Notes: generated by a model not told the origin, from the sequence alone. A stretch of 64,000 bases of DNA from an uncultured Spirochaetota bacterium (GCA_937873275.1 CALMRC010000051.1:1057-65056), one strand, 5' to 3'. Positions 16,387-48,237 are shown, numbered from the stretch's first letter. Numbers and translations: made by a program.

Positions 16387-17781
16387 ATGTTCCTTCCGAA
16401 AGCCCTGCGCCTTGGGACCTGGGCGGCCACGCTGGCCTTCGCGGCCGCGTTCACGATCATCCTGTTCTTCGCGGTCCCGGGCATACCCCTGCCGACCGCC
16501 TCCGCCCTGGGGGCGGCCACCTTCATGGTCCTCTTCCTGGCCCGGATCGCCGTTCTCCGGGCCCTGGACTCGGACCTCCGGAAGCGGCACTTCGGCCGCC
16601 CGGAGACCCGGATCATCCTGGACTTCGTGGAGCGGCTCCGGGTCTCCTTCACGGTGGCGGACCTGGTGGAGGCCGCCCGGGAGCACCTGGAGAAGCGGGC
16701 CGACGCGAGCCTCTTGTTCGTCAAGGACTCCACCTGGGAAACCTACTACGCCAGCCCCTCGGCGACGACGACGGACGAGGAGATCCTCCGGACCATCAAG
16801 CGGAATTTCCGGGGTTGGCCGGACGGATTCTTCTTCCTGGACGAAGGCTTCAACGTCCACCCGGGCGGCCCGGGAAGCCGGGGCTTCCTGATCGTCTGCG
16901 AGGGCTTCCATTTCTACTTCTTCACCCGGATCGGCGGGGCCGTGGAGCCCGAGGCCTTCCGGATGCTCCAGGGGGAGCTCCAGCTTTACTTCAGCCGGAT
17001 CGCCACGGTGGCCCGGCTCTTCGAGATCGCCGCCCTCTCCAAGGAGTGGTCCCTGATCGCGGAGACCCAGCGCTCCTTCCTTCCCAAGGAGATGCCCAAG
17101 ATGGCGAAGCTGGAGACCGCGGCCTACTACCGCCCCCTGGTCAACGTCTCCGGGGACTACTACGACGTGATCCCCATCGATTACCGCCGCACCCTCCTCG
17201 TGGTGGGGGACGTGTCCGGCAAGGGACTGGCCGCGGCCCTGATCATGGGCATCATCGTGAACACGATCCGGATGGCGCCGGACAAGTCCGACCTGGCCTT
17301 CCTGGTGCGAAGCGTGGACGAGGCCATCCGGTCGATGCGGTTCGAGGACAAGTACACGGTCATCTTCCTGGGGATCGTCGATACGGGGGAGAAGGTATTG
17401 CGGTACGTGAACGCCTCCATGTCGGATCCCATCGTCGTCTCCCAGACCGCCCTGGGCGCCAAGCCCAAGAAGCTGGAGTCCACCATGAGTCTCCTCGGCC
17501 TCCTGCCCCTGGAGGGGGAGATCGTCGTCGAGGAGATCCCCCTTCGGACCGACGACGTGATCCTGGTGGCCTCCGACGGCCTGCTGGAGCTCGAGAACCG
17601 GAACGGGGAACAGCTGGGCGAATCCGCCGCCTTCGAGCGGCTCCTGCAGCAATCCTCCCGGGAATCCGCGGAGAGTTTCGTGGAAGGCCTCGCCGGGTTC
17701 GCCTACTCCTACGTGGAGGGACGGCAGCTTCGGGACGACATCACCATCCTGGCCGCCAAGGTGGGTAGACTATGGGACTGA
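16387..17781 (+). CDS. membrane-anchored PP2C/SpoIIE-family serine phosphatase
   Basis: 464 aa with N-terminal TM helices and a C-terminal SpoIIE domain (SGDYYDV...GDVSGKGLAAAL...ASDGLLE). AAGGAG RBS. Confidence 0.8.
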   Translation: MFLPKALRLGTWAATLAFAAAFTIILFFAVPGIPLPTASALGAATFMVLFLARIAVLRALDSDLRKRHFGRPETRIILDFVERLRVSFTVADLVEAAREHLEKRADASLLFVKDSTWETYYASPSATTTDEEILRTIKRNFRGWPDGFFFLDEGFNVHPGGPGSRGFLIVCEGFHFYFFTRIGGAVEPEAFRMLQGELQLYFSRIATVARLFEIAALSKEWSLIAETQRSFLPKEMPKMAKLETAAYYRPLVNVSGDYYDVIPIDYRRTLLVVGDVSGKGLAAALIMGIIVNTIRMAPDKSDLAFLVRSVDEAIRSMRFEDKYTVIFLGIVDTGEKVLRYVNASMSDPIVVSQTALGAKPKKLESTMSLLGLLPLEGEIVVEEIPLRTDDVILVASDGLLELENRNGEQLGESAAFERLLQQSSRESAESFVEGLAGFAYSYVEGRQLRDDITILAAKVGRLWD

Positions 17782-19922: not shown

Positions 19923-20245
19923 ACCAGCTCAACATCGAGGAGCGCCGGGAGGGGACCTTCACGGTCCTGGTCCTGACCGGCCCCGTGAACAGCTACACCT
20001 TCACGGAGTTCCAGGACCGCGTCTACCGAACCGTACGGGAAACCGACACGGCGGTGGACATGGAACACGTCACGACCCTTTCCTCCGCCGGCCTCGGCGC
20101 CCTCATGGTGGCCCTGGAGGACGCGGAGGCCGCGGGCAAGAAGCTCTGGATCCTGAAGCCCTCCGAGATCGTCCGGCTGGCCATCGAGTCCACCGGATTC
20201 TCGGACCGGTTTCCCGTAACCCGGACCCTCAAGGGCCTGGCCTGA
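19919..20245 (+). CDS. STAS-domain anti-sigma-factor antagonist (SpoIIAA/RsbV-like)
   Basis: 108 aa with a candidate phospho-serine context (VTTLSSAGLGAL). ATGA overlap with the phosphatase stop. Confidence 0.8.
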   Translation: MNQLNIEERREGTFTVLVLTGPVNSYTFTEFQDRVYRTVRETDTAVDMEHVTTLSSAGLGALMVALEDAEAAGKKLWILKPSEIVRLAIESTGFSDRFPVTRTLKGLA

Positions 20246-20254
20246 TCGACCCGG

Positions 20255-20731
20255 ATGGACGGCTCCCCGCCTCGGATTCTCCGCTCCGCGGTCCTTCCGG
20301 CGGATCCCGAGGCCGTTCCGGCCTTCGAGGACTGGCTGGACACTATTCCCCCGACCCGCCCTTCCCTGGGGAACCGGATCCGGCTGGCGGGGGGAGAGAT
20401 CCTGGACAACATCGTGCGGCATTCCCGGCCCGCGGGCGGCCTCATACGGGTGCGCCTGCGCGCCTCCGGGGATTCGGCGCGCCTGTCCTTCTCCTTCCGG
20501 TCCGAGTCCTTCCGGGATTTCGTCCGGAACGGTCCCGACGCCCGGAACGGATCAATCGCCCGGACCGCCTACGATCCCGGCTCCCGCCGATGGAGGGGCC
20601 TGGGCCTGGTCATGATCGCCCGCCTGACCGACGATGTCCGGTACCGCTCGGGATGGCCGAAGGACAGGATCGTCGCGGAATTCCGGGATTTCGGCGCTTC
20701 CTCTTGTACACCCGGTACCGGTGGTGTATGA
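20255..20731 (+). CDS. putative HATPase-type anti-sigma factor / serine kinase (RsbW/SpoIIAB-like)
   Basis: 158 aa with an N-box-like GGEILDNIVRHS and a G-box-like WRGLGLVMIARL. Its position after the STAS gene supports the call. Confidence 0.55.
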   Translation: MDGSPPRILRSAVLPADPEAVPAFEDWLDTIPPTRPSLGNRIRLAGGEILDNIVRHSRPAGGLIRVRLRASGDSARLSFSFRSESFRDFVRNGPDARNGSIARTAYDPGSRRWRGLGLVMIARLTDDVRYRSGWPKDRIVAEFRDFGASSCTPGTGGV

Positions 20732-20839: not shown

Positions 20840-21922
20840 ATGAAATCCAAGATTTCCGTCGTCCTCATCGGCATCCTTCTGGTACTGGCCGTGGCCGGCT
20901 GCGCGAAGAAAGAAGCTCCGGCTCCCGCCGCCCCGTCCATGAAGGTCGGCATGGTCACCGACGCCGGCACCATCGACGACAAGTCGTTCAACCAGGGAAC
21001 CTGGGAAGGCGTCCTCCGCGCCGGCACCGAGTTCAAGCTGGACACCAAGTACCTGAAGCCCTCCGGGACCACCGAGGCGGATTACCTCAAGGAAATCGGC
21101 AACCTCTACGATGCGGGCTACAAGTTCATCGTGACCCCGGGCTTCAAGTTCGAGACCACCATCTTCCAGGCCCAGACCAAGTACGCGGACGCCAAGTTCG
21201 TCCTGATCGACGGCAGCCCCCACGCCGGGGACTGGAAGAACGTGGTCGGTCCCAACACCGTGTCCATCTTCTTCGCGGAGCACGAGTCCGGCTTCGTGGC
21301 CGGCGTCGCCGCCGCCCTCCAGATGAAGACCGGGTCCTTCGGCTTCATCGGCGGCATGGAGATTCCCCCGGTCCAGAAGTTCAATTGGGGCTTCCAGCGG
21401 GGCGTAGACTACGCGAACAAGAACCTGGGAACCAAGATCACCATCAAGGCCGAGAACGTGATCTACCAGGGCTCCTTCGACAACGTGGCCGCGGGCCAGC
21501 AGATCGCCGCCTCCATGTACGACAAGGGCGTCACCGTGATCTTCGCGGCCGCCGGCGGCGTGGGCGTGGGCGCCATCAACGAGGCCAAGGCCCGGGCCAC
21601 CGCGGGCAAGACCGCCTGGATCGTGGGCGTGGACGTTGACCAGTACGCCGACGGCATCTACACCGGCGACAAGTCCGTCATCCTGACCAGCGCCATGAAG
21701 CGCATCGACGTGGCCGCCTTCGACATGATCAAGGCCGAGCTGGACAAGACCTTCCCCGGCGGGAAGACCCTCACCTTCGACGCCAAGAACAACGGCGTCG
21801 GCATCCCCGCCAAGAATCCCAACCTCGCCCCCGAAGTCCAGGCCAAGGTCGAGGAGATCTTCAAGCTCATGCAGAACGGAACCATCACGGTTCCCGCCGA
21901 CCAGGGCACCTTCATCAAGTAG
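20840..21922 (+). CDS. BMP-family (PnrA/TmpC-like) nucleoside-binding ABC lipoprotein
   Basis: Start ATG 20840 with lipoprotein signal MKSKISVVLIGILLVLAVAGC. It contains the BMP-family pattern (VTDAGTIDDKSFNQ...). Confidence 0.85.
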   Translation: MKSKISVVLIGILLVLAVAGCAKKEAPAPAAPSMKVGMVTDAGTIDDKSFNQGTWEGVLRAGTEFKLDTKYLKPSGTTEADYLKEIGNLYDAGYKFIVTPGFKFETTIFQAQTKYADAKFVLIDGSPHAGDWKNVVGPNTVSIFFAEHESGFVAGVAAALQMKTGSFGFIGGMEIPPVQKFNWGFQRGVDYANKNLGTKITIKAENVIYQGSFDNVAAGQQIAASMYDKGVTVIFAAAGGVGVGAINEAKARATAGKTAWIVGVDVDQYADGIYTGDKSVILTSAMKRIDVAAFDMIKAELDKTFPGGKTLTFDAKNNGVGIPAKNPNLAPEVQAKVEEIFKLMQNGTITVPADQGTFIK

Positions 21923-21944
21923 GAATCCGCCCCGGCAATCCAGG

Positions 21945-21975
21945 GCCGCCGCCGCGAGGCGGCGGCTTTTTTCTT
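21945..21975 (+). terminator. intra-operon rho-independent terminator/attenuator after the BMP lipoprotein gene
   Basis: GCCGCCGCC-GCGA-GGCGGCGGC followed by TTTTTTCTT. It lies between the binding-protein gene and the ATPase gene. Confidence 0.7.
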
Positions 21976-22084
21976 GTCGAGCCCCCGGGGGGCGGATTAT
22001 ACTGCTGTTCCGAAACCCGCGGCCGTCCGCGGGACGTTCGACGCCAAGGGGGCCCCCCTCCTTGGCCCGCGCCAAGGAGAGGGC

Positions 22085-23611
22085 ATGGAATACATAGTCG
22101 AGATGCTCCACATCACCAAGGACTTCCCCGGAATACGCGCCAACGACGATATCACCGTGCAGCTCCGGAAGGGCGAGATCCACGCCCTCCTGGGGGAGAA
22201 CGGGGCGGGCAAGTCCACCCTGATGAGCATCCTCTTCGGCCTGTATCGGCCGGACGCCGGGGTCATCAAGGTCCGGGGCAACGAGGTGGCCATCCACAAC
22301 CCCAACGTGGCCAACGCCCTGGGCATCGGCATGGTCCACCAGCACTTCAAGCTGGTTCACAACTTCACGGTCACGGAGAACATCATCCTGGGGATGGAAC
22401 CCACCGTAGGCCCCATGCTTCAGACCCGGGACGCCGCCAAGCGGATCAAGGCCCTGTCCGAGCAGTACGGCCTGAACGTGGATCCGGACGCCAAGATCGA
22501 GGACATCTCCGTGGGGATGCAGCAGCGGGTGGAGATCATCAAGATGCTCTACCGCAACGCGGAAGTGCTCATCTTCGACGAGCCCACCGCCGTGCTGACG
22601 CCCCAGGAAATCACGGACCTCATGCAGATCATTCGGAACCTGATCAAGGAGGGAAAATCCATCCTCCTCATCACCCACAAGCTCAAGGAGATCAAGGCCA
22701 TCGCGGACCGCTGCACCGTCATTCGGCGCGGCAAGGTCGTCGACACCGTGGACGTCGCGGACGTGGCGGAGTCCCGGATGGCGGAGATGATGGTGGGTCG
22801 CACGGTTAACTTCACCGTGGACAAGCGGGACCAGGAGCGGGGCGAGGCGGTCCTGTCGATCCGGAACCTGAACGTACTGTCCAGCCGCAAGACCCAGGCC
22901 TTGAAGAATTTCTCCCTCGACGTGCACCGGGGGGAGATCCTAGGTCTGGCGGGGGTGGACGGCAACGGCCAGACCGAGCTGGTGGAGGCCTTGACCGGTC
23001 TGCGCAAGGTGGAATCCGGCTCCATCCTCTTCAAGGGCCGGGACATCACCCACGACGACATCCATTCCCGGGTGATGGCCGGCATGGCCCACATCCCCGA
23101 GGACCGGCAGAAGCGGGGCCTGGTCCTGGACTACACCATGGAGGACAACTTCATCCTGGAGATCTACGGCCGCGAGCCCTATTCGCATAAGGGGTTCCTG
23201 AATCGCAAGGCCATCCGGGACCACGCGGAAAAGCTGATCCGGGACTTCGACGTCCGATCCGGCCAGGGCGCCCTCTCCATGGGCCGGACCCTCTCCGGGG
23301 GAAACCAGCAGAAGGCCATCGTGGGCCGGGAGATCGACCACGACCCCGAGCTGCTCCTGGCGGTACAGCCCACCCGGGGATTGGACGTGGGATCCATCGA
23401 GTACATCCACAAACGGCTAGTGGAGCAGCGGAACAACGGCAAGGCGGTACTCCTGGTCTCCCTGGAGCTGGACGAGATCATGGATCTCTCCGACCGGATC
23501 GCGGTGATCAGCCACGGGGAGCTTACGGGCGTCAAGCTGCCGAAGGAGACCAACGAGAGCGAGATCGGCCTCATGATGGCCGGGATCGCGGGCGCGGGAG
23601 GGACGGAATGA
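22085..23611 (+). CDS. ABC transporter ATP-binding protein with two NBDs (nucleoside/simple-sugar type)
   Basis: Start ATG 22085 behind AAGGAGAGG. Two Walker A sites are present (GENGAGKST and GVDGNGQTE), along with LSGG signatures. Confidence 0.9.
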   Translation: MEYIVEMLHITKDFPGIRANDDITVQLRKGEIHALLGENGAGKSTLMSILFGLYRPDAGVIKVRGNEVAIHNPNVANALGIGMVHQHFKLVHNFTVTENIILGMEPTVGPMLQTRDAAKRIKALSEQYGLNVDPDAKIEDISVGMQQRVEIIKMLYRNAEVLIFDEPTAVLTPQEITDLMQIIRNLIKEGKSILLITHKLKEIKAIADRCTVIRRGKVVDTVDVADVAESRMAEMMVGRTVNFTVDKRDQERGEAVLSIRNLNVLSSRKTQALKNFSLDVHRGEILGLAGVDGNGQTELVEALTGLRKVESGSILFKGRDITHDDIHSRVMAGMAHIPEDRQKRGLVLDYTMEDNFILEIYGREPYSHKGFLNRKAIRDHAEKLIRDFDVRSGQGALSMGRTLSGGNQQKAIVGREIDHDPELLLAVQPTRGLDVGSIEYIHKRLVEQRNNGKAVLLVSLELDEIMDLSDRIAVISHGELTGVKLPKETNESEIGLMMAGIAGAGGTE

Positions 23612-24660
23612 GCCGCTTCAAGAATCTTTTCACCGCCCTGGCCGCGGTGGTCCTGGGACTCCTGGCCGGCGCGGTCTTCATGGCCCTCTCCGGATCCAAC
23701 CCCCTCGCGGGTTTCTACTACCTCTTCCGCGGAGGGCTGATGAACATGGAGCGCATCGGCAACACCCTTGCCTCCGCAACGACCCTCGTGTTCACCGGCC
23801 TGGCCGTGGCCTTCTCCTTCAAGACCGGCTTGTTCAACATCGGAGCCTCCGGCCAGATGCTCATGGGGGGACTCACGGCCACCGCCATCGGGCTGTCCGT
23901 CCAGATGCCCCGGATGATCCTCCTGCCCCTGATCGTCCTGGCCGCCGCGGCGGCCGGAGCCCTCTGGGCCGCGATTCCGGGCTTCCTCAAGGCCAAGTTC
24001 AACGTCCACGAGGTGGTGGCGACCATCATGATGAACTGGATCGCCTACTGGACCGTGTACTACACGATCCCGGCCTATTTCAAAGGCACCTTCCTGGAGA
24101 CCGAATCCCGGCGCATCCCCGCCCTGGCGTCCTTCCGGGTCGAATGGCTCACGAACATCTTCCGGGGTTCCTACATCAACATGGGCGTCTTCCTGGCCCT
24201 GACCGCGGTGATCGTCATCGCGATCATCCTGGAAAAGACGACCCTGGGCTTCGAGCTCAAGGCCGTGGGCTTCAACCGGTATGCCGCGGAATACGCGGGC
24301 ATCCACGTCCCCAAGAACATCGTACTGTCCATGTCCATCTCGGGAATCCTCGCGGGCCTGGCGGGGGCCACCTACTATTTGGGATACGCGGTGAACATGC
24401 AGATCGGCGTCGTACCCTCGGCGGGCATCGACGGCATCGCCGTGGCGCTCCTCGGGGCCAACAGCCCCTGGGGCGTACTCGCCTCCTCCCTGTTCTTCGG
24501 GATCCTCCACTCGGGGAAGGGTTTCATGAACGCCATGACCAAGGTTCCGCCGGAGATCGGGGACACCATCATCGCCATCATCATCTACTTCGCCGCGACG
24601 GGCGTGCTATTCACCCGCCTCTGGGAACGCATCACGCGGAAGTGGAACAAGGAGGCCTAG
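23608..24660 (+). CDS. ABC transporter permease (BMP-type system)
   Basis: 350 aa, multi-TM. It has a 4-nt overlap with the ATPase gene. Confidence 0.85.
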   Translation: MSRFKNLFTALAAVVLGLLAGAVFMALSGSNPLAGFYYLFRGGLMNMERIGNTLASATTLVFTGLAVAFSFKTGLFNIGASGQMLMGGLTATAIGLSVQMPRMILLPLIVLAAAAAGALWAAIPGFLKAKFNVHEVVATIMMNWIAYWTVYYTIPAYFKGTFLETESRRIPALASFRVEWLTNIFRGSYINMGVFLALTAVIVIAIILEKTTLGFELKAVGFNRYAAEYAGIHVPKNIVLSMSISGILAGLAGATYYLGYAVNMQIGVVPSAGIDGIAVALLGANSPWGVLASSLFFGILHSGKGFMNAMTKVPPEIGDTIIAIIIYFAATGVLFTRLWERITRKWNKEA

Positions 24661-24661
24661 G

Positions 24662-25615
24662 ATGCATACCCTCGCCTTGATCTTCCCCTACGCCGTCGCC
24701 TTCACCGTACCCCTGCTGGCCGCATCCTTGGGGGGCCTGTTCAGCGAGCGCTCCGGCGTGGTGAACATCGGCCTCGAGGGGCTGATGGTATCGGGCTCCT
24801 TCACCTGCGCCGTCGTTGCCAGCCGCATGGAGACGGTACTGGGTCCCGGAAATCCCGGCGCGCTCTGGATGGGCCTGGGAGCGGCCGTGGTCGTGGGGGC
24901 CCTCTTCTCCCTGCTCCACGCCTTCGCCAGCATCAGCCTCAAGGCCAACCAGGTCATCAGCGGCACGGCGATCAACATGATCGCCGGATCCCTGACGGTC
25001 TTCCTGGCCCGGACCATGACCGGGTCCGGGAACGTCCGGATCGTCCTGGGCTTCATCCCCTCGGACATCCCGGTCCTCTCGGGCATACCGATCCTGGGTC
25101 CCCTGTTCTTCACGAAGACGTACGCCACCACCTGGCTGATGGCCGCGGTCCTGGCCGTCGCCTGGTTCGTCATCTACAAGACCCCCTTCGGCCTGCGCCT
25201 CCGGGCTTGCGGGGAACACCCCCAGACCGCCGACGCGGCGGGTATCAACGTCTACCGCATGCGCTACATCGCGGTGGTGCTGTCCGGCGCCCTGGCGGGC
25301 TTGGCGGGCGGGATCATCCTGGTGACCTATTCCGGGGAGTTCAACGGAAACGTCGCGGGCCTGGGCTTCCTGGCCCTGGCGGCCCTGATCTTCGGGCAGT
25401 GGAAACCCCTGGGCATCCTGGGGGCCACGGCCTTCTTCGGGTTCGCGGCCACGATCGCCAACGTCTCCCAGGTGATTCCCCAGTTCTCCCGGATACCGGG
25501 TCTCCTCTTGAAGGCCTTCCCCTACGTGGTCACCCTGATCGCCCTGGTCCTCTTCTCCAAGAGCAGCCAGGCGCCCCGGGCCTCGGGGGAGCCCTTTGAC
25601 CAGGGCAAACGATGA
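24662..25615 (+). CDS. ABC transporter permease (BMP-type system)
   Basis: 317 aa, multi-TM. It directly follows the first permease. Confidence 0.85.
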   Translation: MHTLALIFPYAVAFTVPLLAASLGGLFSERSGVVNIGLEGLMVSGSFTCAVVASRMETVLGPGNPGALWMGLGAAVVVGALFSLLHAFASISLKANQVISGTAINMIAGSLTVFLARTMTGSGNVRIVLGFIPSDIPVLSGIPILGPLFFTKTYATTWLMAAVLAVAWFVIYKTPFGLRLRACGEHPQTADAAGINVYRMRYIAVVLSGALAGLAGGIILVTYSGEFNGNVAGLGFLALAALIFGQWKPLGILGATAFFGFAATIANVSQVIPQFSRIPGLLLKAFPYVVTLIALVLFSKSSQAPRASGEPFDQGKR

Positions 25616-25628
25616 GTTTTCCGGAATA

Positions 25629-25728
25629 GCGCCGGGCCGCGGGCCCGGCGGCAACGAAGCCCTTCGGGCTTCGTCGAACCTCACGATTATTCCGGCAGCT
25701 CCGATACGATCGCGACGCCGTTGGACGC
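25629..25728. repeat. solo copy of the hairpin-hairpin-relic repeat unit
   Basis: GCGCCGGGCCGCGGGCCCGGCGGC (9-bp stem), then ACGAAGCCC-TTC-GGGCTTCGT hairpin, spacer and relic. The same module occurs at 32.0-32.3 kb in the same orientation. Confidence 0.75.
25687..25728 (-). pseudogene. relic of a deoC2-type 3' end (ASNGVAIVSELPE-stop) on the far side of the BMC locus
   Basis: Minus-strand reading GCG TCC AAC GGC GTC GCG ATC GTA TCG GAG CTG CCG GAA TAA, preceded by an in-frame stop. 35/42 nt are identical to 32284-32325 by hand alignment, and 5 of the 6 coding differences are synonymous. Confidence 0.7.
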
Positions 25729-25799
25729 TCATCTCCGGCGCGCGAAAAAATCGGCCCCCGAACACCGGGGGCCGCTTCGTATTCGGAGGATCGGAACCC

Positions 25800-26582
25800 T
25801 CAGTAGCCGCTTCCCAGGGACTGGCCGCTCACCAGGGTGACGCCCTGGCTGGTGCCCAGGCGGTTCGCGCCGGCGTCCAGCATGGCCAGGGCGTCGTCGA
25901 AGCTGCGGATCCCGCCGGCGGCCTTTACTCCCACGGAGGGTCCCACGGTCCGGCGCATCAGCGCGACGTCCGCGACCGTGGCGCCGGACTTGGAGAATCC
26001 CGTCGAGGTCTTCACGAAATCCGCGCCCACGTCCTTCGCGACCTGGCAGGCCAGGACCTTCTCGGCGTCCGTGAGGAGGCAGGCCTCGATGATGACCTTG
26101 AGGACGATGCCGACGCGGCAGGCCCGGCGGACCGCCAGCATGTCCTCCCGGACGGCCTTGAGGTCACCGGCCTTCAAAGCCCCGATGTTCATGACCATGT
26201 CGACCTCGGACGCCCCGTTCGAGACGGCGGTCCGGGCCTCGAAGGCCTTCGAACGGCTGTCCATGGCCCCCAGGGGGAAGCCCACGACCGTGCAGACCTT
26301 GACGCCCGTTCCGCCCAGGCGCCGGGCGCAGCGCTCCACCCAGGTCGAGTTCACGCAGACGGAGGCGAAGCGGTGCTTGGCCGCCTCGTCGCACAGGACG
26401 TCGATCTGGTCCTCCGTGGCCTCGGGCTTTAGGAGGGTGTGGTCGATGAAGGGCGCCAGCTCGGCCGGTTCCATCCGGGGCCGCGCGGGCCCCTCGTCGT
26501 TCGGAACCTCGACCGCCCGGGTCCCCATCCTCGCCAGGACTTCCTGCACGATCCTCTCGATTACCTTTTCCTCGTCCGTCAT
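25800..26582 (-). CDS. deoC: deoxyribose-phosphate aldolase with N-terminal encapsulation-peptide-like extension (DeoC1)
   Basis: Start ATG 26580-26582, with an ATGA overlap with the rpiB stop. The first ~45 aa ([20 protein letters not shown] plus a P/G-rich linker) precede the DERA core [11 protein letters not shown]...VCVNS...KTSTGF...VKAAGGIR. Confidence 0.85.
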
Positions 26583-27070
26583 CCTTCGAAGCCTCCACGC
26601 TCCAGGGCCATGATCTTGTTTATCCTGACGATGTGGCGGCCCCCGGCGAACCGGGTCTCCAGCCACACCTTCACCATCTCGGTCAGGCGGTCCGGCGTAT
26701 GCAAGGGGCCGCCCAGGGTCAGGACGTTCGCGTTGTTGTGCTCCCGGCTGTTCACCACGGTCCGGAGGTCGTAGCACATCGCCGCGCGGATGCCCCGAAC
26801 CTTGTTCGCGGCCATGCAGGAACCGATGCCCGCCCCGTCCAGGACGATCCCCCGCTCGCAGGCCCCGCTCTTCACCTTCCGGCACACCGCCAGGGCGATG
26901 TCGGGATAGTCCACCTTCTCGGTCCCGAAGGTCCCGACGTCGGTCACCCGATACCCCAGGACCTCGAGATAGCGGACCAGGAGGGTCTTCTGCTCGACCG
27001 CCCCGTGGTCCGCGCCGATCGCCACGTTCCGCACCACGTCCGCGGGGGCGGACCCTTCCTCGGCGCTCAT
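26579..27070 (-). CDS. rpiB: ribose-5-phosphate isomerase B / sugar-phosphate isomerase (RpiB/LacAB family)
   Basis: Start ATG 27068-27070, with an ATGA overlap with the BMC-P stop. Core is VAIGADHGA...[10 protein letters not shown]...GGRH. Confidence 0.85.
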
Positions 27071-27348
27071 TCGTCCCCTCCCATGTCGATCCGGTCCACG
27101 ATCCCGCACACCGCCGTCCGCACGGTCACCGCCCCCTCGTCCTCCACGACGGTCCGGGCGGATCCGCCCTCGTCCACGACCAGCACGAGGTCCCCGATCC
27201 CGGCCTGGACCCCGTCCACGGCCAGGAGGGTCTTGCCCCGGGGACTCCCGTCGGGATCCACGGGACGGACCGCCAGGATCTTCTTTCCCGTGTAGCGGGG
27301 GTCCTTTTCCGTGGAGACGACGCTCGCCACGACCTTGGCCAGGATCAC
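27067..27348 (-). CDS. BMC-P (EutN/CcmL-family) shell vertex protein, paralog 4
   Basis: GTG start at 27346-27348, with a GTGA overlap with the paralog 3 stop. The 93-aa product reads (M)[14 protein letters not shown]...[16 protein letters not shown]...[10 protein letters not shown], an EutN-like pattern. Confidence 0.75.
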
Positions 27349-27623
27349 GGGGCGCCTCCCCGGTCCACCGCGTCCACCACGCCCAGGATCGCGGCGTCCG
27401 CCGGGTTGAACCACCCGTTCGGGTTCGCCTGGGCGGCCTCCTTGCCGGACTCGAAGATCACCAGGTCCCCCTCGCCCGCCCGGGCGGTGTCGAAGGCCAC
27501 CAGGGGAGGCCCCGCGGAGGCGCCGGTCTCGTCGACGGGCTGGACCAGGAGGAGCTTGAGCCCCTCGAAGCATTCCATCTTGCGGGTGCTGACCACCCGG
27601 CCGATAACCTTTCCGAGCTTCAT
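27345..27623 (-). CDS. BMC-P (EutN/CcmL-family) shell vertex protein, paralog 3
   Basis: ATG 27621-27623 behind GGAAGG. The 92-aa product reads MKLGKVIGRVVSTRK...LLLVQPVD...AILGVVDAVD. Confidence 0.8.
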   Translation of the reverse strand: MKLGKVIGRVVSTRKMECFEGLKLLLVQPVDETGASAGPPLVAFDTARAGEGDLVIFESGKEAAQANPNGWFNPADAAILGVVDAVDRGGAP

Positions 27624-27634
27624 CGCGGGCCTTC

Positions 27635-29074
27635 CTAGACGATCCGGAAATAGTCGACCAGGGTGCACCGCCGCTCCCGGGTGAAGGACGTGGGCCGGGT
27701 GATCCCCTCGCCCGTGGGGCTCGCGATCGTGAAGGACGCGTGGCCCGCGCCCCCCTGGCCCAGCCCCGCGTAGCAGGGTCCGTTCTTGACGAAGAGGGAG
27801 CAGTCCATGGCCCGGGCCATGTGCGAGAGGCGGGCCACGTCGTGGGAGTGCATGATCGCGGTGTGCCGGTACCCGTGCTCCGCCAGGACCGCGAACTCGA
27901 TGGCCTCGTCGGCGTTCCGCATCCGGACGAAGGGGATCACCGGCATGAGCTGTTCCGTCCAGACCAGGGGGTGTCCGCTCGTCGTCTCCATTAGGAGGAT
28001 CCGGGCGCTCTCGGGCACCTCGATCCCGGCCGCCTTGGCGATGAAGGCCGGGCTCTTGCCCACGAAGGCCCGGTTCGGGGAGCCCGGCCGGCCGGGCCCG
28101 CCCGGCTCGGCGATGATTAGCTTGGTGACCGCGTCGATCTGGGAGCCCTTGAGCTCGTAGGCCCCGTTCCGCAGGAGCTCCTCCTTGAGGCGGTCCGCGA
28201 TGGAGGCGACCGCCAGGATCTCCTTCTCGCAGATGCACACCACGTTGTGGTCGAAGCCGGCCCCGTCCACGATGTCCTTGCCGGCCTTGGCCAGGTCGGC
28301 GGTCTCGTCGACGACGCAGGGAGGGTTCCCGGGGCCCGCGCAGATGGCCTTCTTGCCGCTGGCCATGGCCGCGCGCACGACCCCCGGACCCCCGGTGACC
28401 ACGAGGAGGGCAATCCCGGGGTGCCGCATGAGCTCTCCGGCGGTCTCCAGGGTCGGCTCGGCCACGGCGCACAGGAGGTTTCCGGGCCCCCCGGCCCGGA
28501 CGACCGCCCCGCCGAGCATCTCGATGAGCAGGCGGGAGACGCCCTTGGCGCCGGGGTGCACGTTGAACACGACGGAGTTCCCCGCGGCCACCATCCCGAT
28601 GGCGTTGCTCGCGATCGAGGATATGGGGTTCGTCACCGGGGTGATCGCTCCGATCACCCCGTAGGGGGCCAGCTCCGTGAGGGTGAGACCGTGCTCGTCC
28701 GTGACCACCCGGGACTGGAGATCCTCGACCCCCGGGGTCCGGAGGGCGGCCAGCTCGTTCTTTATCGTCTTGTCCCGGACGTTGCCCAGGCCCGTCTCCG
28801 CGACGGCGGCCTGGCTCAGGGCCTCGTTGGCCTCCAGGACGGTCCGGCGGATCGCTTCGATCACGGCCCGCCGGGTGTCCAGGGGCAGCCGGACGAGCTC
28901 CCGCTGGGCCGCCTGGGCCGCCTGGACGGCGGAATCCATGTCCGGGAAGATACCCGGACCCCGGGCCGTCGCCGGGCCCCCGCCCTTCGCACCCGAGGAC
29001 AGGAGGGCGGCGATCTCCGGGGATCGCAGGATCTCCTCGACCACCCGACGAATATCCTCCGCGCCGTACGCCAT
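27635..29074 (-). CDS. CoA-acylating aldehyde dehydrogenase (PduP/EutE-like) with N-terminal encapsulation-peptide-like helix
   Basis: 479 aa with the ALDH fold and a catalytic Cys context (HNVVCICEKE). The C-terminus is typical of the family (RRCTLVDYFRIV). The N-terminus is MAYGAEDIRRVVEEILRS followed by a Gly/Pro linker. Confidence 0.85.
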   Translation of the reverse strand: MAYGAEDIRRVVEEILRSPEIAALLSSGAKGGGPATARGPGIFPDMDSAVQAAQAAQRELVRLPLDTRRAVIEAIRRTVLEANEALSQAAVAETGLGNVRDKTIKNELAALRTPGVEDLQSRVVTDEHGLTLTELAPYGVIGAITPVTNPISSIASNAIGMVAAGNSVVFNVHPGAKGVSRLLIEMLGGAVVRAGGPGNLLCAVAEPTLETAGELMRHPGIALLVVTGGPGVVRAAMASGKKAICAGPGNPPCVVDETADLAKAGKDIVDGAGFDHNVVCICEKEILAVASIADRLKEELLRNGAYELKGSQIDAVTKLIIAEPGGPGRPGSPNRAFVGKSPAFIAKAAGIEVPESARILLMETTSGHPLVWTEQLMPVIPFVRMRNADEAIEFAVLAEHGYRHTAIMHSHDVARLSHMARAMDCSLFVKNGPCYAGLGQGGAGHASFTIASPTGEGITRPTSFTRERRCTLVDYFRIV

Positions 29075-29377
29075 CTATAGCCCCCGTTCCGACTCGTTCC
29101 AGAGCGTGGTTCCGCCGGAGTCCACCGAGTCCACGATCCCCACCGCCAGGGTGTCCATGGGAGCGTTCTCGGTCCGGTAGGTCCAGCGGCAGGAACTGCC
29201 CTGGGTCAGCATCACCAGCTGGCCCCGCTCCGCCCCCACCATGTCCAAGGCCACCAGGTAGTCCCCCCGCCCGGAGCCTTCGGGGCCGCAGTCCTCCACC
29301 AGGAGGTACCGCGCGCCCTCAAGTCCGTCGGATCGCCGGGAGGCGACCACGGTTCCCCGGACCCTCGCCAAGGTCAT
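29075..29377 (-). CDS. BMC-P (EutN/CcmL-family) shell vertex protein, paralog 2
   Basis: 100 aa, MTLARVRGTVVASRR...LVALDMVGAERGQLVML...AVGIVDSVD. The stop directly abuts the AldDH ATG. Confidence 0.8.
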   Translation of the reverse strand: MTLARVRGTVVASRRSDGLEGARYLLVEDCGPEGSGRGDYLVALDMVGAERGQLVMLTQGSSCRWTYRTENAPMDTLAVGIVDSVDSGGTTLWNESERGL

Positions 29378-29676
29378 TCGGACCGGGCCTTCTCGTAGGT
29401 GTACGATCCGTCCTTCTCGATCGCGTCCACCACGGCGATCACCGTCGCGTCCGTGGGGCGGCCCTTGGTCGCCTCCGTGAGGCGGGCGCTGGAGCCGGTG
29501 ACGTAGAATACGACCTCCCCGGCGTTGGCCCCGACGGAATCCATGGCGACCACGAAGTCGCCCTTGCCCGCGAGGCTTACCGGATCGATCTTCTCGAGGA
29601 GGAGCAGCCGGAGCCCCTCCATGGAGGGGCTCTTGTGGGTGGAGACGACGGTCCCCCGGACCCGGGCGATCAGCAT
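29374..29676 (-). CDS. BMC-P (EutN/CcmL-family) shell vertex protein, paralog 1
   Basis: 100 aa, MLIARVRGTVVSTHK...VVAMDSVGANAGEVVFYV...VIAVVDAIE. ATGA overlap with paralog 2. Confidence 0.85.
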   Translation of the reverse strand: MLIARVRGTVVSTHKSPSMEGLRLLLLEKIDPVSLAGKGDFVVAMDSVGANAGEVVFYVTGSSARLTEATKGRPTDATVIAVVDAIEKDGSYTYEKARSE

Positions 29677-29686
29677 GGGGACGACC

Positions 29687-29995
29687 CTATTTCCGAGGAG
29701 GCGCCGGCTTCCTGCCCAGGGGCAGGGCCGCCTCCACGGACTCGTGGGGCCGGGGAATCACGTGGGTCGAGATGACCTCCCCGACCTTCTCCGCGGACCG
29801 GGCCCCGGCGTCGACGGCCGCCCGGCAGGCGGCGACGTCCCCGCGCACGATGGCGGTCGCGTACCCGCCTCCGATCTTCTCGTAGCCGATCAGGTCGACC
29901 TTCGCCGCCTTGACCATCGCGTCCGCGGCCTCCACCATCGCCGCGAAACCCCGCGTCTCGATCATGCCGAGCGCGTCGTTCGTTGTATCCGCCAT
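29687..29995 (-). CDS. BMC-H hexameric shell protein (PduA/EutM-like)
   Basis: 102 aa, [57 protein letters not shown]...HVIPRPH. This is a canonical single BMC domain. Confidence 0.9.
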
Positions 29996-30032
29996 ATCCG
30001 CTCCTTAATAAGGGCGTCCCCGCCGGGGGCGC

Positions 30033-30674
30033 CTAGATCCTCTGGGTTCCGGCCCCGATCGTCCGGCCGGTCAGGCCCTCCAGGCGGGCCTCCACGGTCT
30101 TCCGGGCCTCGATCACCTCGGCCTCGTCCCCGGCTATGTACACGCGCCCGAAGGCCCCGAAGCCGAGCACCTCCACGATGTTCACCCGGGCGGTCTTCTC
30201 GGCCTCGTTGGCCGCGTAGTACGCGTAACCCGCGGGCTCCACCTCCAGGACGTACAGGGTGTCCCCCCGGAGGACCATGTTCCCGTGGCGGACCTTGTTG
30301 ATCAGCTGGGCGTGGTGGTCCGAGACGTTCTTGATGAGCTGGCTCGTGAGGACCCGGGGCTTGAGCCGATCCTCCTCCTTGAGGCCGAGCTCCCGCAGGA
30401 CGGCCTCCCCGGCCGTTCGGGCGTCGCCCTGGCGGTCGGAATGGACCTCCAGGAGGCCGTAGGCCCGCTCCACGATCTGGAGCCCCGGGGTCACGTTGGT
30501 CGCCTTGAGGGCGATGTCCGTAAGGCGGTTGATCTCGATGCCGGGAGCGATTTCGATGATGCAGCAGGCCTGGAACCCGACCGGGTAGTAGCCCTTGCTC
30601 ACCGTGGCGATGAAGGAGGCGTTCTGGAGCTGGAGGGAGTCCAGGAACACGTAGGTCCGAAGGTCGATGTTCAT
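30033..30674 (-). CDS. BMC-T tandem-domain shell protein (subclass not resolved)
   Basis: 213 aa with two BMC-like halves (DIALKATNVTPGLQIVERAYGLLEV and NEAEKTARVNIVEVLGFGAFGRVYIAGDEAEV). The N-terminus LRTYVFLDSLQLQ is reminiscent of trimer-forming BMC-T proteins. Confidence 0.7.
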   Translation of the reverse strand: MNIDLRTYVFLDSLQLQNASFIATVSKGYYPVGFQACCIIEIAPGIEINRLTDIALKATNVTPGLQIVERAYGLLEVHSDRQGDARTAGEAVLRELGLKEEDRLKPRVLTSQLIKNVSDHHAQLINKVRHGNMVLRGDTLYVLEVEPAGYAYYAANEAEKTARVNIVEVLGFGAFGRVYIAGDEAEVIEARKTVEARLEGLTGRTIGAGTQRI

Positions 30675-30677
30675 GGA

Positions 30678-30974
30678 TCAGTCCCCCTTCCGGCCCAGGG
30701 GCAGGGCCTCGTCCACGGAGGCGTGGGGCCGGGGGATCACGTGGGTCGACACGACCTCTCCGACCTTCTCCGCGGACCGGACTCCCGCGTCCACGGCGGC
30801 CCGGCAGGCCGCGACGTCCCCGCGGACGACGACCGTGACGTAGCCGCCGCCGAGCTTCTCGTATCCCACCAGGTCGACCTTCGCGGCCTTGACCATCGTG
30901 TCGGCGGCCTCCACCATGGCCGCGAATCCTTTCGTCTCGATCATGCCGAGAGCGTCGTTCGTCGATCCAGACAT
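30678..30974 (-). CDS. BMC-H hexameric shell protein (PduA/EutM-like), first gene of operon
   Basis: 98 aa, [57 protein letters not shown]...HVIPRPH. GGAGGG RBS. Confidence 0.9.
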
Positions 30975-31065
30975 ACACCCTCCTGGTGCGCCGCGGCGGC
31001 CCGGGGCGTCCGCTCCGCCCTCCCGGGAACCCGGCCGACTGGATCCCTCACCGGGATCGCCCTGA

Positions 31066-31094
31066 AGTATAGAGGATGGAATGTTTCAGGTCAA
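31066..31094 (-). promoter_or_regulatory. sigma70-like promoter TTGACC-N17-TATACT for the BMC operon
   Basis: Minus-strand reading is TTGACC TGAAACATTCCATCCTC TATACT. It lies ~90 nt upstream of the first BMC-H ATG. Confidence 0.55.
31077..31088. promoter_or_regulatory. candidate DeoR operator half-palindrome TGGAATGTTTCA (inside BMC promoter spacer)
   Basis: It is a near copy, in inverse sense, of TGGAACATTTCA at 31122-31133. The motif is TGrAACATTyCA. Confidence 0.4.
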
Positions 31095-31121
31095 GCAATC
31101 GGCCGGAAAATATGGTATAGT

Positions 31122-31133
31122 TGGAACATTTCA
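31122..31133. promoter_or_regulatory. candidate DeoR operator TGGAACATTTCA (adjacent to deoR -10)
   Basis: This is the second copy of the 12-mer, 45 bp from the first. It is flanked by the direct repeats ATGGTATA (31112-31119 and 31133-31140). Confidence 0.4.
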
Positions 31134-31142
31134 TGGTATACT
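31134..31142 (+). promoter_or_regulatory. extended -10 (TGgTATACT) candidate promoter for deoR
   Basis: CATGGTATACT. No good -35 was found, so it is classed as extended -10. Confidence 0.35.
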
Positions 31143-31231
31143 TTTCTCATCGGGGCTCGAGGCCGATTCCTCCGGATACCGGGCCGGACCCCGGACATTT
31201 CGAGCGGGCCGAACGCGGGTGGAGACGGGGC

Positions 31232-32008
31232 ATGACCAAAAGCGAACGATGGAACGCGATCATGAGGCGCCTGGGATTCGAGACGGCGGCAAGCATCCTG
31301 GAGCTGTCCCGGGACCTCGACGTGTCCCCCATGACCGTGCGCAGGGACCTGGCCGCCCTGGCCCGGGAGGGCAAGGTCCGGGTCCTGTACGGCAGCGCCA
31401 TGCTCCATCCGGACCTGGCCCGCCGGGAGAGCGAGACCTACTACTCCCTCAACGCCGCGGGAGCCGAGCACGCGGAGGAGAAGCGCAGGATCGGGAAGGC
31501 GGCCGCGGCCCTCGCCGAGCCGGGGGACGGCCTCATCGTCGACTGCGGGTCCACGACGGAGTACGTGGCCCGGTACCTCTCCGAGGAGGCGGAGTACACC
31601 GTCCTGTGCTACTCCCTGAACGTCGTGTCCGAGCTCGTCCGGAGGAGGAACTGCCGAACGCTCTTCTCGGGGGGGGAGTTCCACGAGAACACCCTGATGT
31701 TCGAAAGCCCCGAGGGCCTCGAGGCCATCCGGCATTTCCGGGCCAGCAAGGCCTTCCTCTCCGCCTCCGGCGTGGACGCCAAATTCGGGGTGACCTGCAG
31801 CAACGCCTACGAGCGGGAGACCAAGAAGGCCGTGATCCAGTCCTCCCTGCGCAAGATCCTGGTGGTGGACTCCTCGAAGTTCGGGGCCGTCCGCCCGGCC
31901 TACTTCGCGGACCTGGCGGATTTCGATGAGATCGTCACGGATCCGGGAATACCCGACGAGTACCGGAGGATCGCCGAGGAGCGGGGTCTCCGCCTGACCA
32001 TCGTCTAG
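31232..32008 (+). CDS. DeoR-family transcriptional regulator
   Basis: Start ATG 31232. N-terminal HTH is ERWNAIMRRLGFETAASILELSRDLDVSPMTVRRDLAAL, with a C-terminal DeoR sugar-phosphate sensor domain. It is divergent from the BMC operon. Confidence 0.85.
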   Translation: MTKSERWNAIMRRLGFETAASILELSRDLDVSPMTVRRDLAALAREGKVRVLYGSAMLHPDLARRESETYYSLNAAGAEHAEEKRRIGKAAAALAEPGDGLIVDCGSTTEYVARYLSEEAEYTVLCYSLNVVSELVRRRNCRTLFSGGEFHENTLMFESPEGLEAIRHFRASKAFLSASGVDAKFGVTCSNAYERETKKAVIQSSLRKILVVDSSKFGAVRPAYFADLADFDEIVTDPGIPDEYRRIAEERGLRLTIV

Positions 32009-32078
32009 GTTGCGACGCCCGCGCGCTTATCGCCGGGCGGCAATGAAGCGCGGAGCGCTTCCCCGAAATCCACGAATC

Positions 32079-32114
32079 CTATTCGGGGAGTTCGGAGACT
32101 ATGGCGACTGCGCC
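32079..32114 (-). pseudogene. relic of deoC2 3' end (GAVAIVSELPE-stop), tandem copy
   Basis: Reverse complement GGC GCA GTC GCC ATA GTC TCC GAA CTC CCC GAA TAG. The peptide is the same but the codons differ. Confidence 0.65.
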
Positions 32115-32194
32115 GGGCCGCGGGCCCGGCGGCAACGAAGCGCGGAGCGCTTCGTCGAGTTTTCTGAAGCCGGCGCGGACCGGATACCGGCATA

Positions 32195-32230
32195 CTATTC
32201 GGGGAGTTCCGATACTATGGCGACTGCGCC
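32195..32230 (-). pseudogene. relic of deoC2 3' end (GAVAIVSELPE-stop), tandem copy
   Basis: Reverse complement GGC GCA GTC GCC ATA GTA TCG GAA CTC CCC GAA TAG. It differs from the 32079 copy only at two synonymous sites. Confidence 0.65.
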
Positions 32231-32283
32231 GGGCCGCGGGCCCGGCGGCGCCGAAGCTAAGGCTTCGGCGATTTTCCGTAGAA

Positions 32284-32880
32284 CTACTCCGGCAACTCCG
32301 ATACAATTGCGACGCCGCTGGAGGCTCCTATCCGGTCCGCGCCGGCTTCCAGGAGCTGGATGGCGTCGTGGTAGGTACGGATGCCGCCGGAGGCCTTGAT
32401 GCGGAGATCCCGATCCCCGATCGTACCCCGAAGGAGCCGGATGTCCTCCACGCTCGCGCCCCCGGTCCCGAAGCCCGTGCTCGTCTGGACGTATCGGGCG
32501 CCGGCCCGGATCGCCGCCTCGCAGGCGCGGGCCTTCTCGGACTCGCCCAGGTAGCAGGTCTCCAGGATCACCTTCACCGCCGCCGGTCCGGATGCCTGGA
32601 CGACCCCCCGGATGTCCTCCTCCACCGCCTTCCAGTCCCCGGACTTGGCGGCGCCGAGGTTGATCACCATGTCGACCTCCCCCGCGCCCGACTGGACGGC
32701 GAGGCGGGCTTCCTCCGCCTTGGATTCCGGATCGCTCGCCCCCAGGGGAAATCCGATCACGGAACAGACGGTGATTCCGCTGCCCGCGAGCTTGCGGAGG
32801 CAGAAGCGGATCCAGTAGGGGTTCACGCAGACGCCGAAGAACCCGAACGCGCGGGCCTCGGCGCAATGCTCCTCCAGCAT
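32284..32880 (-). CDS. deoC: deoxyribose-phosphate aldolase paralog without targeting extension (DeoC2); true 5' end unresolved
   Basis: 198 aa from the first ATG, with DERA core VCVNP...VQTSTGF...IKASGGIR. The conserved N-terminal strand (AELAKAIDHSLLKAFGTER) is encoded in-frame upstream of that ATG, with no ATG/GTG/TTG available. Confidence 0.7.
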   Translation of the reverse strand: MLEEHCAEARAFGFFGVCVNPYWIRFCLRKLAGSGITVCSVIGFPLGASDPESKAEEARLAVQSGAGEVDMVINLGAAKSGDWKAVEEDIRGVVQASGPAAVKVILETCYLGESEKARACEAAIRAGARYVQTSTGFGTGGASVEDIRLLRGTIGDRDLRIKASGGIRTYHDAIQLLEAGADRIGASSGVAIVSELPE

Positions 32881-32970
32881 CCGTTCCGTGCCGAAGGCCT
32901 TGAGGAGGCTGTGATCGATCGCCTTGGCCAGTTCGGCCCGGGTCCAATGCTTCGTAGAAAGCTCCTTTCG

Positions 32971-44032: not shown

Positions 44033-44116
44033 AAGGTATGAATCACCTCTCACTTCTCTTAGTACACCCGTTTCCCGCATCCGTCAAGAAGAAAAAAGCA
44101 TACGGTTCCAGGAATC

Positions 44117-44318
44117 GACCACGGAGGTCACGGAGAGCACGGAGAAATACTCCGAATCTAGGAAGAAAGACAAGATAAGTACAGAATCCACATGATGGGA
44201 AAAAGAAATTAACCCCGCTCCACCCATGTTCCGTCCTAAGGGTTCTGTGCTGTCATTAGATCCTAGTCCTCTCCTCCTCTTCCTCCTCTTCCTCCGTGAC
44301 CTCCGTGTGCTCCGTGGT
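44117..44318. mobile_element. ~200-bp AT-rich MITE-like element with triple NNCACGGAG inverted ends (copy 1)
   Basis: Left end is GACCACGGAG GTCACGGAG AGCACGGAG and right end is CTCCGTGAC CTCCGTGTG CTCCGTGGTG. The interior is markedly AT-rich relative to its surroundings. No ORF with coding character. Confidence 0.55.
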
Positions 44319-44365
44319 GAGCCCTGCACATCCTTTTCTCGCTTGCGCCCTTCCCGGGCCGGGTG

Positions 44366-47951: not shown

Positions 47952-47999
47952 GAGCGATTTGATACATCCATCCGGACCGATAGAAAGGTTAAGAGGACT

Positions 48000-48199: not shown

Positions 48200-48237
48200 T
48201 GATTCCGGAAAAACCTAGAAGCCGTCCTCGACTACGG

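Follow-up and report, generated by a model that had tools for sequence, protein, structure and literature searches.

The locus analysed here is an operon of ten predicted bacterial microcompartment (BMC) genes, located on the minus strand at positions 25800–30974 of a 64-kb stretch of spirochaete chromosome (the window, by which the whole stretch is meant). Its closest described counterparts belong to the sugar-phosphate-utilising (SPU) class of BMCs, defined by Axen (2014) and later catalogued as more than 280 loci from 26 phyla, distributed among seven subtypes (Sutter 2021, PMC8217296). SPU is among the most widespread BMC classes, and two questions about it concern the role of its ribose-5-phosphate isomerase (RPI) homologue and the turnover of cofactors. 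The only SPU enzymes characterised biochemically are those of the SPU6 BMC of Chloroflexi bacterium GWB2_54_36 (Dwyer, Sutter and Kerfeld 2024, PMC11585597). In that study the purified deoxyribose-phosphate aldolase (DERA) acted on deoxyribose-5-phosphate (dR5P), the purified RPI had essentially no activity on ribose-5-phosphate, and the two were shown to form a complex. A Cys to Asp replacement was noted in all SPU RPIs. The authors also observed that SPU types lacking a phosphotransacylase (PTAC) typically possess a double-stacking shell protein (BMC-Tdp), and proposed that cofactors are exchanged via this protein. For an archaeal SPU-type locus, shells were reconstituted in vitro (2025 Hodarchaeales preprint, PMC12747264). 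These two studies make outdated the claim, contained in a preliminary description of the window, that no member of the class had been purified or characterised. The same description held that substrate and role are open; this stands in part only, since the activity of the SPU6 DERA has been shown, whereas no report of native SPU organelle purification or of in vivo substrate proof was found in the searchable literature.

The subtype that concerns us is SPU2. In the catalogue (Sutter 2021, PMC8217296, Supplementary Data 2), it has as enzymes only an aldehyde dehydrogenase (AldDH), a PF01791 protein and a PF02502 protein, as a rule neither PTAC nor triose-phosphate isomerase (TPI), with one or two BMC-H, a BMC-P triplet plus one extra BMC-P, a CcmP-like BMC-Tdp and an N-terminal encapsulation peptide (EP) on all AldDHs; 'a third' of its RPIs carry an EP, and its hosts are mainly Bacteroidetes, Spirochaetes and candidate phyla (Atribacteria, KSB3/Moduliflexus). 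To judge from its gene content, the window locus is a typical member of this catalogued and partly characterised subtype and no new kind of system. We consider it likely that it is a catabolic SPU2-type BMC (metabolosome) operon, whose products would split dR5P and trap the resulting toxic acetaldehyde as acetyl-CoA.

Assignment of the operon to subtype SPU2

All ten minus-strand ORFs matched, in Pfam, the family predicted for them, and the order H-Tdp-H-P-P-AldDH-P-P-RPI-DERA was as given in the preliminary description, which had recognised ten co-directional, mostly overlapping or abutting genes and had named the SPU class of published catalogues (Table 1). The features of this class that were found are shell genes of PF00936 and PF03319 clustered with enzymes, a DERA with an N-terminal extension, an acylating AldDH and an RPI of the Asp type. 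Those of SPU2 are (i) the restricted enzyme set, (ii) a CcmP-like BMC-Tdp, (iii) two similar BMC-H and four BMC-P, matching the published subtype in number, (iv) a predicted N-terminal EP on AldDH, and likewise on DERA, and (v) a spirochaete host, which falls within the published host range.

Related loci were collected by an AldDH scan of a genome collection, which gave 543 relatives; the comparisons below were made with the best 80 of these 543. Hosts of the 80 loci are Spirochaetota, Bacteroidota, Moduliflexus/Vecturithrix/KSB3 and Atribacterota, and the gene order is kept in nearly all of them, across four phyla. The closest relative is the metagenome-assembled genome (MAG) 'Spirochaetes bacterium RA.bin110', whose AldDH is 95% identical and whose locus is fully syntenic.

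Two features set the locus apart from SPU2 as published: its RpiB-like protein has no EP, which accords with the published share of one third, and a BMC-Ts gene (and PduS) is missing. The stop codon of the second BMC-P (P2) abuts the AldDH start, and no tandem PF00936 gene of the Ts type is present in the window. P2 likewise abuts AldDH (gap ≤22 bp) in about 31 other Spirochaetota loci. A 560-bp BMC-Ts gene, with two BMC domains, occupies this position in about 35 of the 80 loci, and five of the 80 have BMC-Ts together with a PduS-like flavoprotein there. Judged by these arrangements, BMC-Ts (and PduS) has been lost clade-wide in the Spirochaetota clade of the window. Because BMC-Ts is absent while the other SPU2 features are present, the locus was filed as a Ts-less SPU2 variant.

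The locus resembles the SPU6 BMC in having an N-terminally extended DERA with conserved catalytic residues, Asp in place of Cys66 in the RPI, an AldDH, at least three BMC-P, a BMC-Tdp and no PTAC. However, the SPU6 AldDH belongs to another branch and carries its EP at the C-terminus, whereas that of the window AldDH is N-terminal; the DERA extension is ~70 aa long in SPU6 and 41 aa in the window; the SPU6 RPI has an N-terminal EP and a ~75-aa linker, both absent from the RpiB-like protein of the window; the SPU6 Tdp comes from a different clade; and the regulator is of the GntR/UTRA type in SPU6 and of the DeoR type here. Likeness to the shell of Haliangium ochraceum (HO) is seen in the BMC-T, for which HO BMC-T3 is the best solved match, in the BMC-P multiplet and in the related AldDH branch, but the main HO locus is devoid of DERA and RPI. 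With the ethanolamine (EUT) and propanediol (PDU) utilisation BMCs the locus shares the principle of a signature enzyme that yields a volatile aldehyde within a shell of BMC-H, BMC-T and BMC-P, and of an EP-tagged acylating AldDH that converts it to acyl-CoA. It differs from them in that its signature enzyme, a class I aldolase, has a sugar phosphate as substrate, that PTAC and alcohol dehydrogenase for internal recycling are absent from the locus, and that a Tdp, lacking in EUT1 and PDU1, is part of the shell. The Hodarchaeales BMC (PMC12747264) has in common with the window locus the SPU-type core of DERA and AldDH and a multiple-P shell; it differs in being archaeal, in the fusion of its DERA to a flavoprotein domain and of one BMC-P to a DNA-binding disordered tail, and in having BMC-Ts with NADH dehydrogenase.

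Table 1. Features of the BMC operon and its surroundings (positions in the window)
Feature	Coordinates	Strand	Evidence
DERA, 260 aa, with 41-aa N-terminal extension	25800..26582	-	PF01791 1e-17; TIGR00126
RpiB-like protein, Cys66→Asp and Thr68→Ala	26579..27070	-	PF02502 (LacAB_rpiB) 1.6e-48
BMC-P 4, GTG start overlapping the P3 stop	27067..27348	-	PF03319 3.2e-23
BMC-P 3	27345..27623	-	PF03319 4e-24
CoA-acylating AldDH	27635..29074	-	PF00171 1.9e-33; NF011927 631 bits (cut-off 403)
BMC-P 2	29075..29377	-	PF03319 8.3e-24
BMC-P 1, pentamer vertex protein	29374..29676	-	PF03319 4.4e-25
BMC-H 2	29687..29995	-	PF00936 3.1e-31
BMC-Tdp, CcmP-like, double-stacking, gated pseudohexamer (predicted), 213 aa	30033..30674	-	PF00936 3e-6
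BMC-H 1, hexamer shell protein	30678..30974	-	PF00936 1.6e-31
Promoter-like site, TTGACC-17-TATACT	31066..31094	-	sigma-70-like, 10/12 matches
Terminator-like hairpin and T-run	25752..25774	-	10 pairs, 9 GC; tail ATTTTTTCGC; 26 nt past DERA stop
DeoR-family repressor (putative), divergent from operon	31232..32008	+	PF00455 (DeoRC) 7e-46; PF08220 (HTH_DeoR)
Candidate DeoR operator, degenerate palindrome TGTTCCAACTATACCA	31113..31128	-	2 mismatches
PnrA/Bmp lipoprotein, double ABC ATPase and two permeases (not in operon)	20840..25615	+	Bmp 1e-62; ABC_tran; 2 x BPD_transp_2
Second DERA, without N-terminal extension	32284..32952	-	TIGR00126 254 bits; 52% identical to BMC DERA

Shell proteins, cargo enzymes and transcription unit

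The seven shell genes announced in the preliminary description all pass the PF00936 or PF03319 profiles: three PF00936 genes (two BMC-H and one tandem BMC-T) and four PF03319 genes (BMC-P) are contained in the one operon. The two BMC-H are 84% identical. The four BMC-P, which sit as two adjacent pairs, are mutually 35–40% identical (40% for P1 and P2), and each has a positional orthologue in nearly all 80 related loci; in view of this low mutual identity and of the orthologues present in nearly every related locus, their paralogy is ancient. When the BMC-T was compared with solved structures (phmmer against the PDB), the best match was HO BMC-T3 (5v76, 2e-72), followed by CcmP (2e-70) and CsoS1D (2e-48), and the Glu-Arg pair of its 'VERAYG' motif aligned with that of CcmP 'IERLYG'. 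The CcmP equivalog NF053796 was the sole model matched, at 282 bits and hence below the cut-off of 340, and neither RuBisCO nor Ccm genes were found in the window. By these sequence comparisons, the protein is CcmP-like and is not carboxysomal CcmP. No additional BMC, EutN, BMC-Ts or PduS coding region was detected by tblastn across the window. By sequence, the shell kit is complete, consisting of two BMC-H, one gated CcmP-like BMC-Tdp and four BMC-P.

The AldDH was expected to be an acylating enzyme of the PduP/EutE type. In addition to passing NF011927, it matched the BMC-associated acylating (PduP-type) AldDH 5jfl in the PDB at 4e-131, with the catalytic Cys aligned. Its N-terminal helix, GAEDIRRVVEEILR, is strongly amphipathic (hydrophobic moment 0.86) and is followed by a Gly/Ala/Pro linker; the N-terminal motif is conserved across related loci. 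The BMC DERA scored 283 bits with the TIGR00126 deoC equivalog (cut-off 117) and matched solved DERAs at 1.7e-78 in a structure search made with a 253-aa query that lacked the first 7 residues, the domain beginning at about residue 42. It holds the motifs EVDMV, FVKTSTG and VKAAGG. We take these to contain the counterparts of D102, K167 and K201, which are catalytic in the E. coli enzyme, the mapping being drawn in part from Dwyer 2024. By profile and motif the aldolase is a bona fide DERA.

Of 70 DERA orthologues in the related loci, 68 open their extension with the motif M-D-Q-N-x-L-I-x-K-I-[VT]-x-E-V-x-x-R-[LM], after which comes a low-complexity linker that varies in sequence. AlphaFold2 (AF2) modelling with a 55-sequence alignment gave a helix at residues 3–20 (pLDDT ~68), a disordered segment at residues 20–32 (<50) and the barrel from residue 39 (>90). 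Since the hydrophobic moment of the helix is moderate (0.47–0.53), an EP was called because of where the helix sits, its conservation and its prediction by AF2, and not because of this value. The N-termini of DERA and AldDH both have the predicted architecture of an EP, a helix plus a flexible linker. A public entry (P0155, 'MAG TPA: deoxyribose-phosphate aldolase [Spirochaetia bacterium]'), whose DERA is 98% identical, is annotated with 224 aa and without the N-terminal extension; missed extensions in annotations of SPU DERAs were described previously (Dwyer 2024, PMC11585597).

The third cargo gene had been named RpiB. Membership of the family (PF02502) was borne out but the name of a canonical isomerase was not, as the catalytic Cys and Thr are replaced and the score with the rpiB equivalog TIGR01120 (136.0 bits) is under the cut-off of 138.65; the family-level models TIGR00689 (151 bits, cut-off 88) and NF004051 (159 bits, cut-off 135) were passed. 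Relative to RpiB of C. thermocellum (3he8, GIVICGTGLG), the catalytic 'CGTG' has become 'DGAG', and at the positions of Cys66 and Thr68 Asp was found in 74/74 and Ala in 73/74 related loci. Residues D9, H10, H99, N100, R133, H134 and R137 are retained across the 74 loci (E. coli RpiB numbering, for which the 3he8 alignment and Dwyer 2024 back the Cys/Thr positions). The gene is the most constrained of the operon, with a ratio of non-synonymous to synonymous substitution rates (dN/dS) of 0.025 against the relative L001. Only ~15 aa precede the domain, with no helix and no EP; orthologues from KSB3, Atribacterota and some Spirochaetota do bear an EP-like helix. Among the 150 best representatives of 50%-identity clusters, at least 94 are of this D-type, typically with N-terminal extensions of ~60 aa, and 23 are C-type RpiB. 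From its sequence the protein should not be named a ribose-5-phosphate isomerase, nor does it resemble a decaying pseudoenzyme.

The gene junctions, read from the sequence, measure +3, +37, +10, -4 (ATGA), 0, +11, -4 (GTGA), -4 (ATGA) and -4 (ATGA) nt, and the four ATGA/GTGA start/stop overlaps suggest translational coupling in the operon. A single promoter-like site was found (0.4 expected), with an AACAT half-site inside its spacer (31078–31086); related loci have the 'GCTTGACaTnTAACAT' arrangement ahead of their first shell gene too, again with the half-site in the -35/-10 spacer. This site and a terminator-like hairpin bracket the ten genes, which by sequence form one transcription unit of ~5.3 kb, encoding three cargo and seven shell proteins. 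Rfam gave no match within the operon or close to it, and so no known riboswitch in the leader of ~90 nt; its sole match was a tRNA at 1586–1657. The G+C content of the window is ~66%, and genuine genes are recognisable by a G+C content at third codon positions (GC3) of roughly 0.9; the operon has a G+C of 0.69–0.71 compared with ~0.65 in its flanks. Horizontal transfer, which this higher value could have indicated, was set aside, as values up to 0.73 occur elsewhere in the window and relatives have the same arrangement. The dN/dS was 0.105 for the whole operon against the 95%-identical relative L001 and 0.03–0.17 for individual genes. By this measure the operon is under purifying selection.

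A divergent DeoR regulator upstream, also foreseen in the preliminary description, was identified by both DeoR profiles. It probably begins with the ATG at 31232 and not with the TTG at 31121, and a DeoR gene occupies the equivalent position in 14 related loci. The candidate operator overlaps an extended -10-like element, TGGTATAGT, for deoR on the plus strand; no copy of the operator was found ahead of the Bmp importer. In 14 relatives, the interval that separates the DeoR-like gene from the first shell gene is enriched in TGTTA/TAACA half-sites, with 37 in total compared with 11.3 ± 3.3 in shuffled sequences, and in five loci, L004 (~7897–7912), L010 (~7966–7981), L061, L068 and L080, it contains perfect TGTTA-N6-TAACA palindromes. 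This architecture is like that of the E. coli DeoR operator, a 16-bp palindrome, TGTTAGAA-TWCTAACA (PMC5326754). On this comparison, the degenerate palindrome of the window and the AACAT in the promoter spacer may be DeoR sites.

Flanking genes, predicted pathway and competing explanations

The transporter genes downstream of the operon are convergent with it, a lipobox is visible at the start at 20840, and at family level the proteins would form a nucleoside-type ABC importer. Homologous transporter genes adjoin the BMC locus in L001, L002, L004, L005, L009, L014 (Bmp only) and L017, although the genes around it are arranged differently. Directly 5' of the importer, the region 16387–20700 contains two large SpoIIE-type PP2C phosphatase genes (16387–17781 and 17772–19922), a STAS-like ORF (~19920–20245) and one more ORF, the last two having been read from the sequence only; this set resembles a partner-switching module.

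On the other side, beyond DeoR, the second DERA closes a ValS-HD-DERA row. It has ACG in the window ('ACGAAGCATTGGACC') at the place of the ATG start in L001 ('ATGAAACAGTGGACC'; region 32940–32960). An AAAGGAG ribosome-binding site is found 6 nt 5' of the ACG, and use of the next in-frame start, at 32880, would remove the first beta-strand, 'IDHSLLK'. This could mean that the start codon was lost, that ACG is used as a rare start, or that the base was misread in sequencing. Between this gene and the HD gene, ~147 bp are not shared with L001. A uridine kinase gene is located 10 kb away. A REP-like double-hairpin repeat (core GCGCCGGGCCGCGGGCCCGGCGGC then ACGAAGCGCGGAGCGCTTCGT) flanks the block of DeoR and BMC genes on both sides, at 25629–25652, 32110–32133 and 32226–32249, with a partial copy at 32032–32066. 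All copies, three of them with an exact core (0.01 expected), share one orientation, and the repeat has no other sites in the window; the second hairpin scores as terminator-like, and a related hairpin lies 3' of the second DERA in L001. The repeat may mark an insertion boundary or may simply be a genome-wide terminator/REP element.

The importer, the DeoR-like regulator and the extension-less second DERA alongside the operon point to nucleoside-derived deoxyribose as the substrate. On the pathway that we favour, (deoxy)nucleosides would be imported by the adjacent PnrA-type ABC importer and converted to dR5P by unlinked cytosolic enzymes encoded outside the window. dR5P would relieve repression by the divergent DeoR-like regulator and enter the shell via the pores of BMC-H or Tdp, where DERA would cleave it to glyceraldehyde-3-phosphate, which would leave for glycolysis, and acetaldehyde, which would be kept inside. 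AldDH would then convert acetaldehyde to acetyl-CoA with formation of NADH. This chemistry, as the preliminary description had it, equals the published model for the class (PMC8217296, PMC11585597). Because PTAC, alcohol dehydrogenase, PduS and BMC-Ts are all absent from the locus, CoA/acetyl-CoA and NAD+/NADH would most likely be exchanged through the large gated pore of BMC-Tdp, as Dwyer et al. proposed. The EP-less RpiB-like protein would probably be carried in by binding to DERA, as in the SPU6 complex, and would act as a constrained, non-canonical partner and not as a ribose-5-phosphate isomerase.

Several observations weigh against this pathway. A pure scaffold role does not account for the fact that the active site of the RpiB-like protein is invariant and under strong constraint. 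The best NCBIfam model of the regulator, that of E. coli DeoR (NF007961), gave 168.6 bits with a cut-off of 244, and the operator pattern has 2 hits in the window with 1.4 expected, so that the degenerate copy has no significance by itself. No equivalog was matched by the PnrA-like protein, whose ligand is taken from the family only, and as nucleoside phosphorylase and phosphopentomutase are not among the window genes, the route from nucleosides to dR5P is assumed. No cofactor-recycling enzyme is present in the locus, and traffic through Tdp is hypothetical. Finally, many related SPU2 loci sit in sugar/polyol clusters and not beside nucleoside importers.

As regards cofactors, an alternative is that they are recycled inside the shell by an EP-tagged PTAC, alcohol dehydrogenase or PduS with BMC-Ts, supplied from a satellite locus, instead of being exchanged via BMC-Tdp. 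The BMC-Ts and occasional PduS found between P2 and AldDH in other SPU2 loci would fit such recycling, as would the split SPU2 loci that have been reported (Sutter 2021, PMC8217296), and the genome is visible for 64 kb only. However, the window contains no such recycling genes (among the window ORFs scanned with Pfam, none matched PF06130 or PF00465, nor the further family PF00121), the abutment of P2 and AldDH in the Spirochaetota loci is a clean clade-wide loss and not an assembly gap, and SPU2 was stated to have no satellite loci (Sutter 2021, PMC8217296). We regard internal recycling as unlikely.

Somewhat less probable still is a different or additional sugar-phosphate substrate, of pentose, pentitol or other origin, with dR5P as one substrate or a side substrate and the RpiB-like protein as an Asp-base enzyme or a sugar-phosphate-binding subunit. 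The state of that protein argues for it: D-G-A-G is invariant, all other RpiB substrate-binding residues are kept, the gene has the lowest dN/dS of the operon, the D-type forms a large clade, and RpiB of M. tuberculosis functions with a Glu base in place of Cys (cited in PMC11585597). So do gene neighbourhoods. Related SPU2 loci from two phyla lie among sugar/polyol genes (L005, L008, L009, L011, L013, L029, L031, L036 and L049), which include Peripla_BP_4-type (ribose-type) ABC importers, two kinds of FGGY kinase, SDR, Zn-dependent alcohol dehydrogenase (Zn-ADH), 2-hydroxyacid dehydrogenase, aldose 1-epimerase, class II aldolase and SorC or GntR-UTRA regulators; antisense artefact families produced by greedy clustering of flank ORFs in high-GC loci (clusters 7, 10, 13, 17 and 19) were dropped from this analysis. 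The physiological feedstock may differ among SPU2 hosts. On the other hand, the DERA lies far over the deoC equivalog cut-off and close to solved DERAs, the SPU6 DERA cleaves dR5P while the SPU6 RPI has negligible ribose-5-phosphate isomerase activity, no enzymatic step connects the RPI product to DERA (PMC11585597), and the flanks in the window are of the nucleoside and DeoR types. A silent or decaying relic, or enzymes that act shell-free in the cytosol, would be a very improbable explanation of the operon: the start-codon anomaly in the neighbouring housekeeping DERA does indicate some regional decay, but the ten ORFs of the operon are intact with four start/stop overlaps, every gene has a low dN/dS, a promoter-like site and a terminator-like hairpin are in place, and synteny is kept across four phyla.

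Returning to the dR5P pathway, a more far-reaching version of it may be put forward, albeit tentatively and as something we doubt more than we believe. In view of its invariant Asp/Ala active site, its retained binding residues and the strongest constraint in the operon, the RpiB-like protein might bind or transform a sugar phosphate within the compartment, either by presenting or opening dR5P for DERA or by acting on a second substrate, and the clade free of Ts, PduS and PTAC might represent a metabolosome without private cofactor recycling, in which the gated BMC-Tdp serves NAD(H) and CoA.

Other features of the window and biological meaning

Two further repeat families were noted at a distance from the operon. 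Three tandem 36-nt units (GATTATGTGAGGTTCATATAATCCCGGCCTGCGGCA..., 86–100% identical) occupy 49060–49174, in the gap between a TatD-family DNase gene (48199–49008) and a gene for a small outer-membrane beta-barrel (49294–49884). A 34-nt intergenic repeat rich in 'CACGGAG' has four copies that are 79–94% identical (44111–44144, 47994–48027, 60455–60488 and, inverted, 44292–44325), two of which form an inverted pair around the start of a tandem-TetR gene at 44226.

Hundreds of near-identical loci exist. The operon described here is a compact (~5.3 kb, ten genes) and apparently self-contained example of SPU2, with a minimal enzyme set and without Ts, PduS and PTAC. Independent support from the genome for the deoxyribose/nucleoside hypothesis comes from the DeoR-type regulator and the adjacent PnrA-type importer, together with the deo-like operators of relatives. 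The sugar/polyol neighbourhoods of other SPU2 loci call for caution, as this hypothesis may not cover the whole subtype. The Ts-less clade would be well suited to a clean test of two points, the ability of a metabolosome to do without internal cofactor recycling and the function of the constrained Asp-variant RPI.

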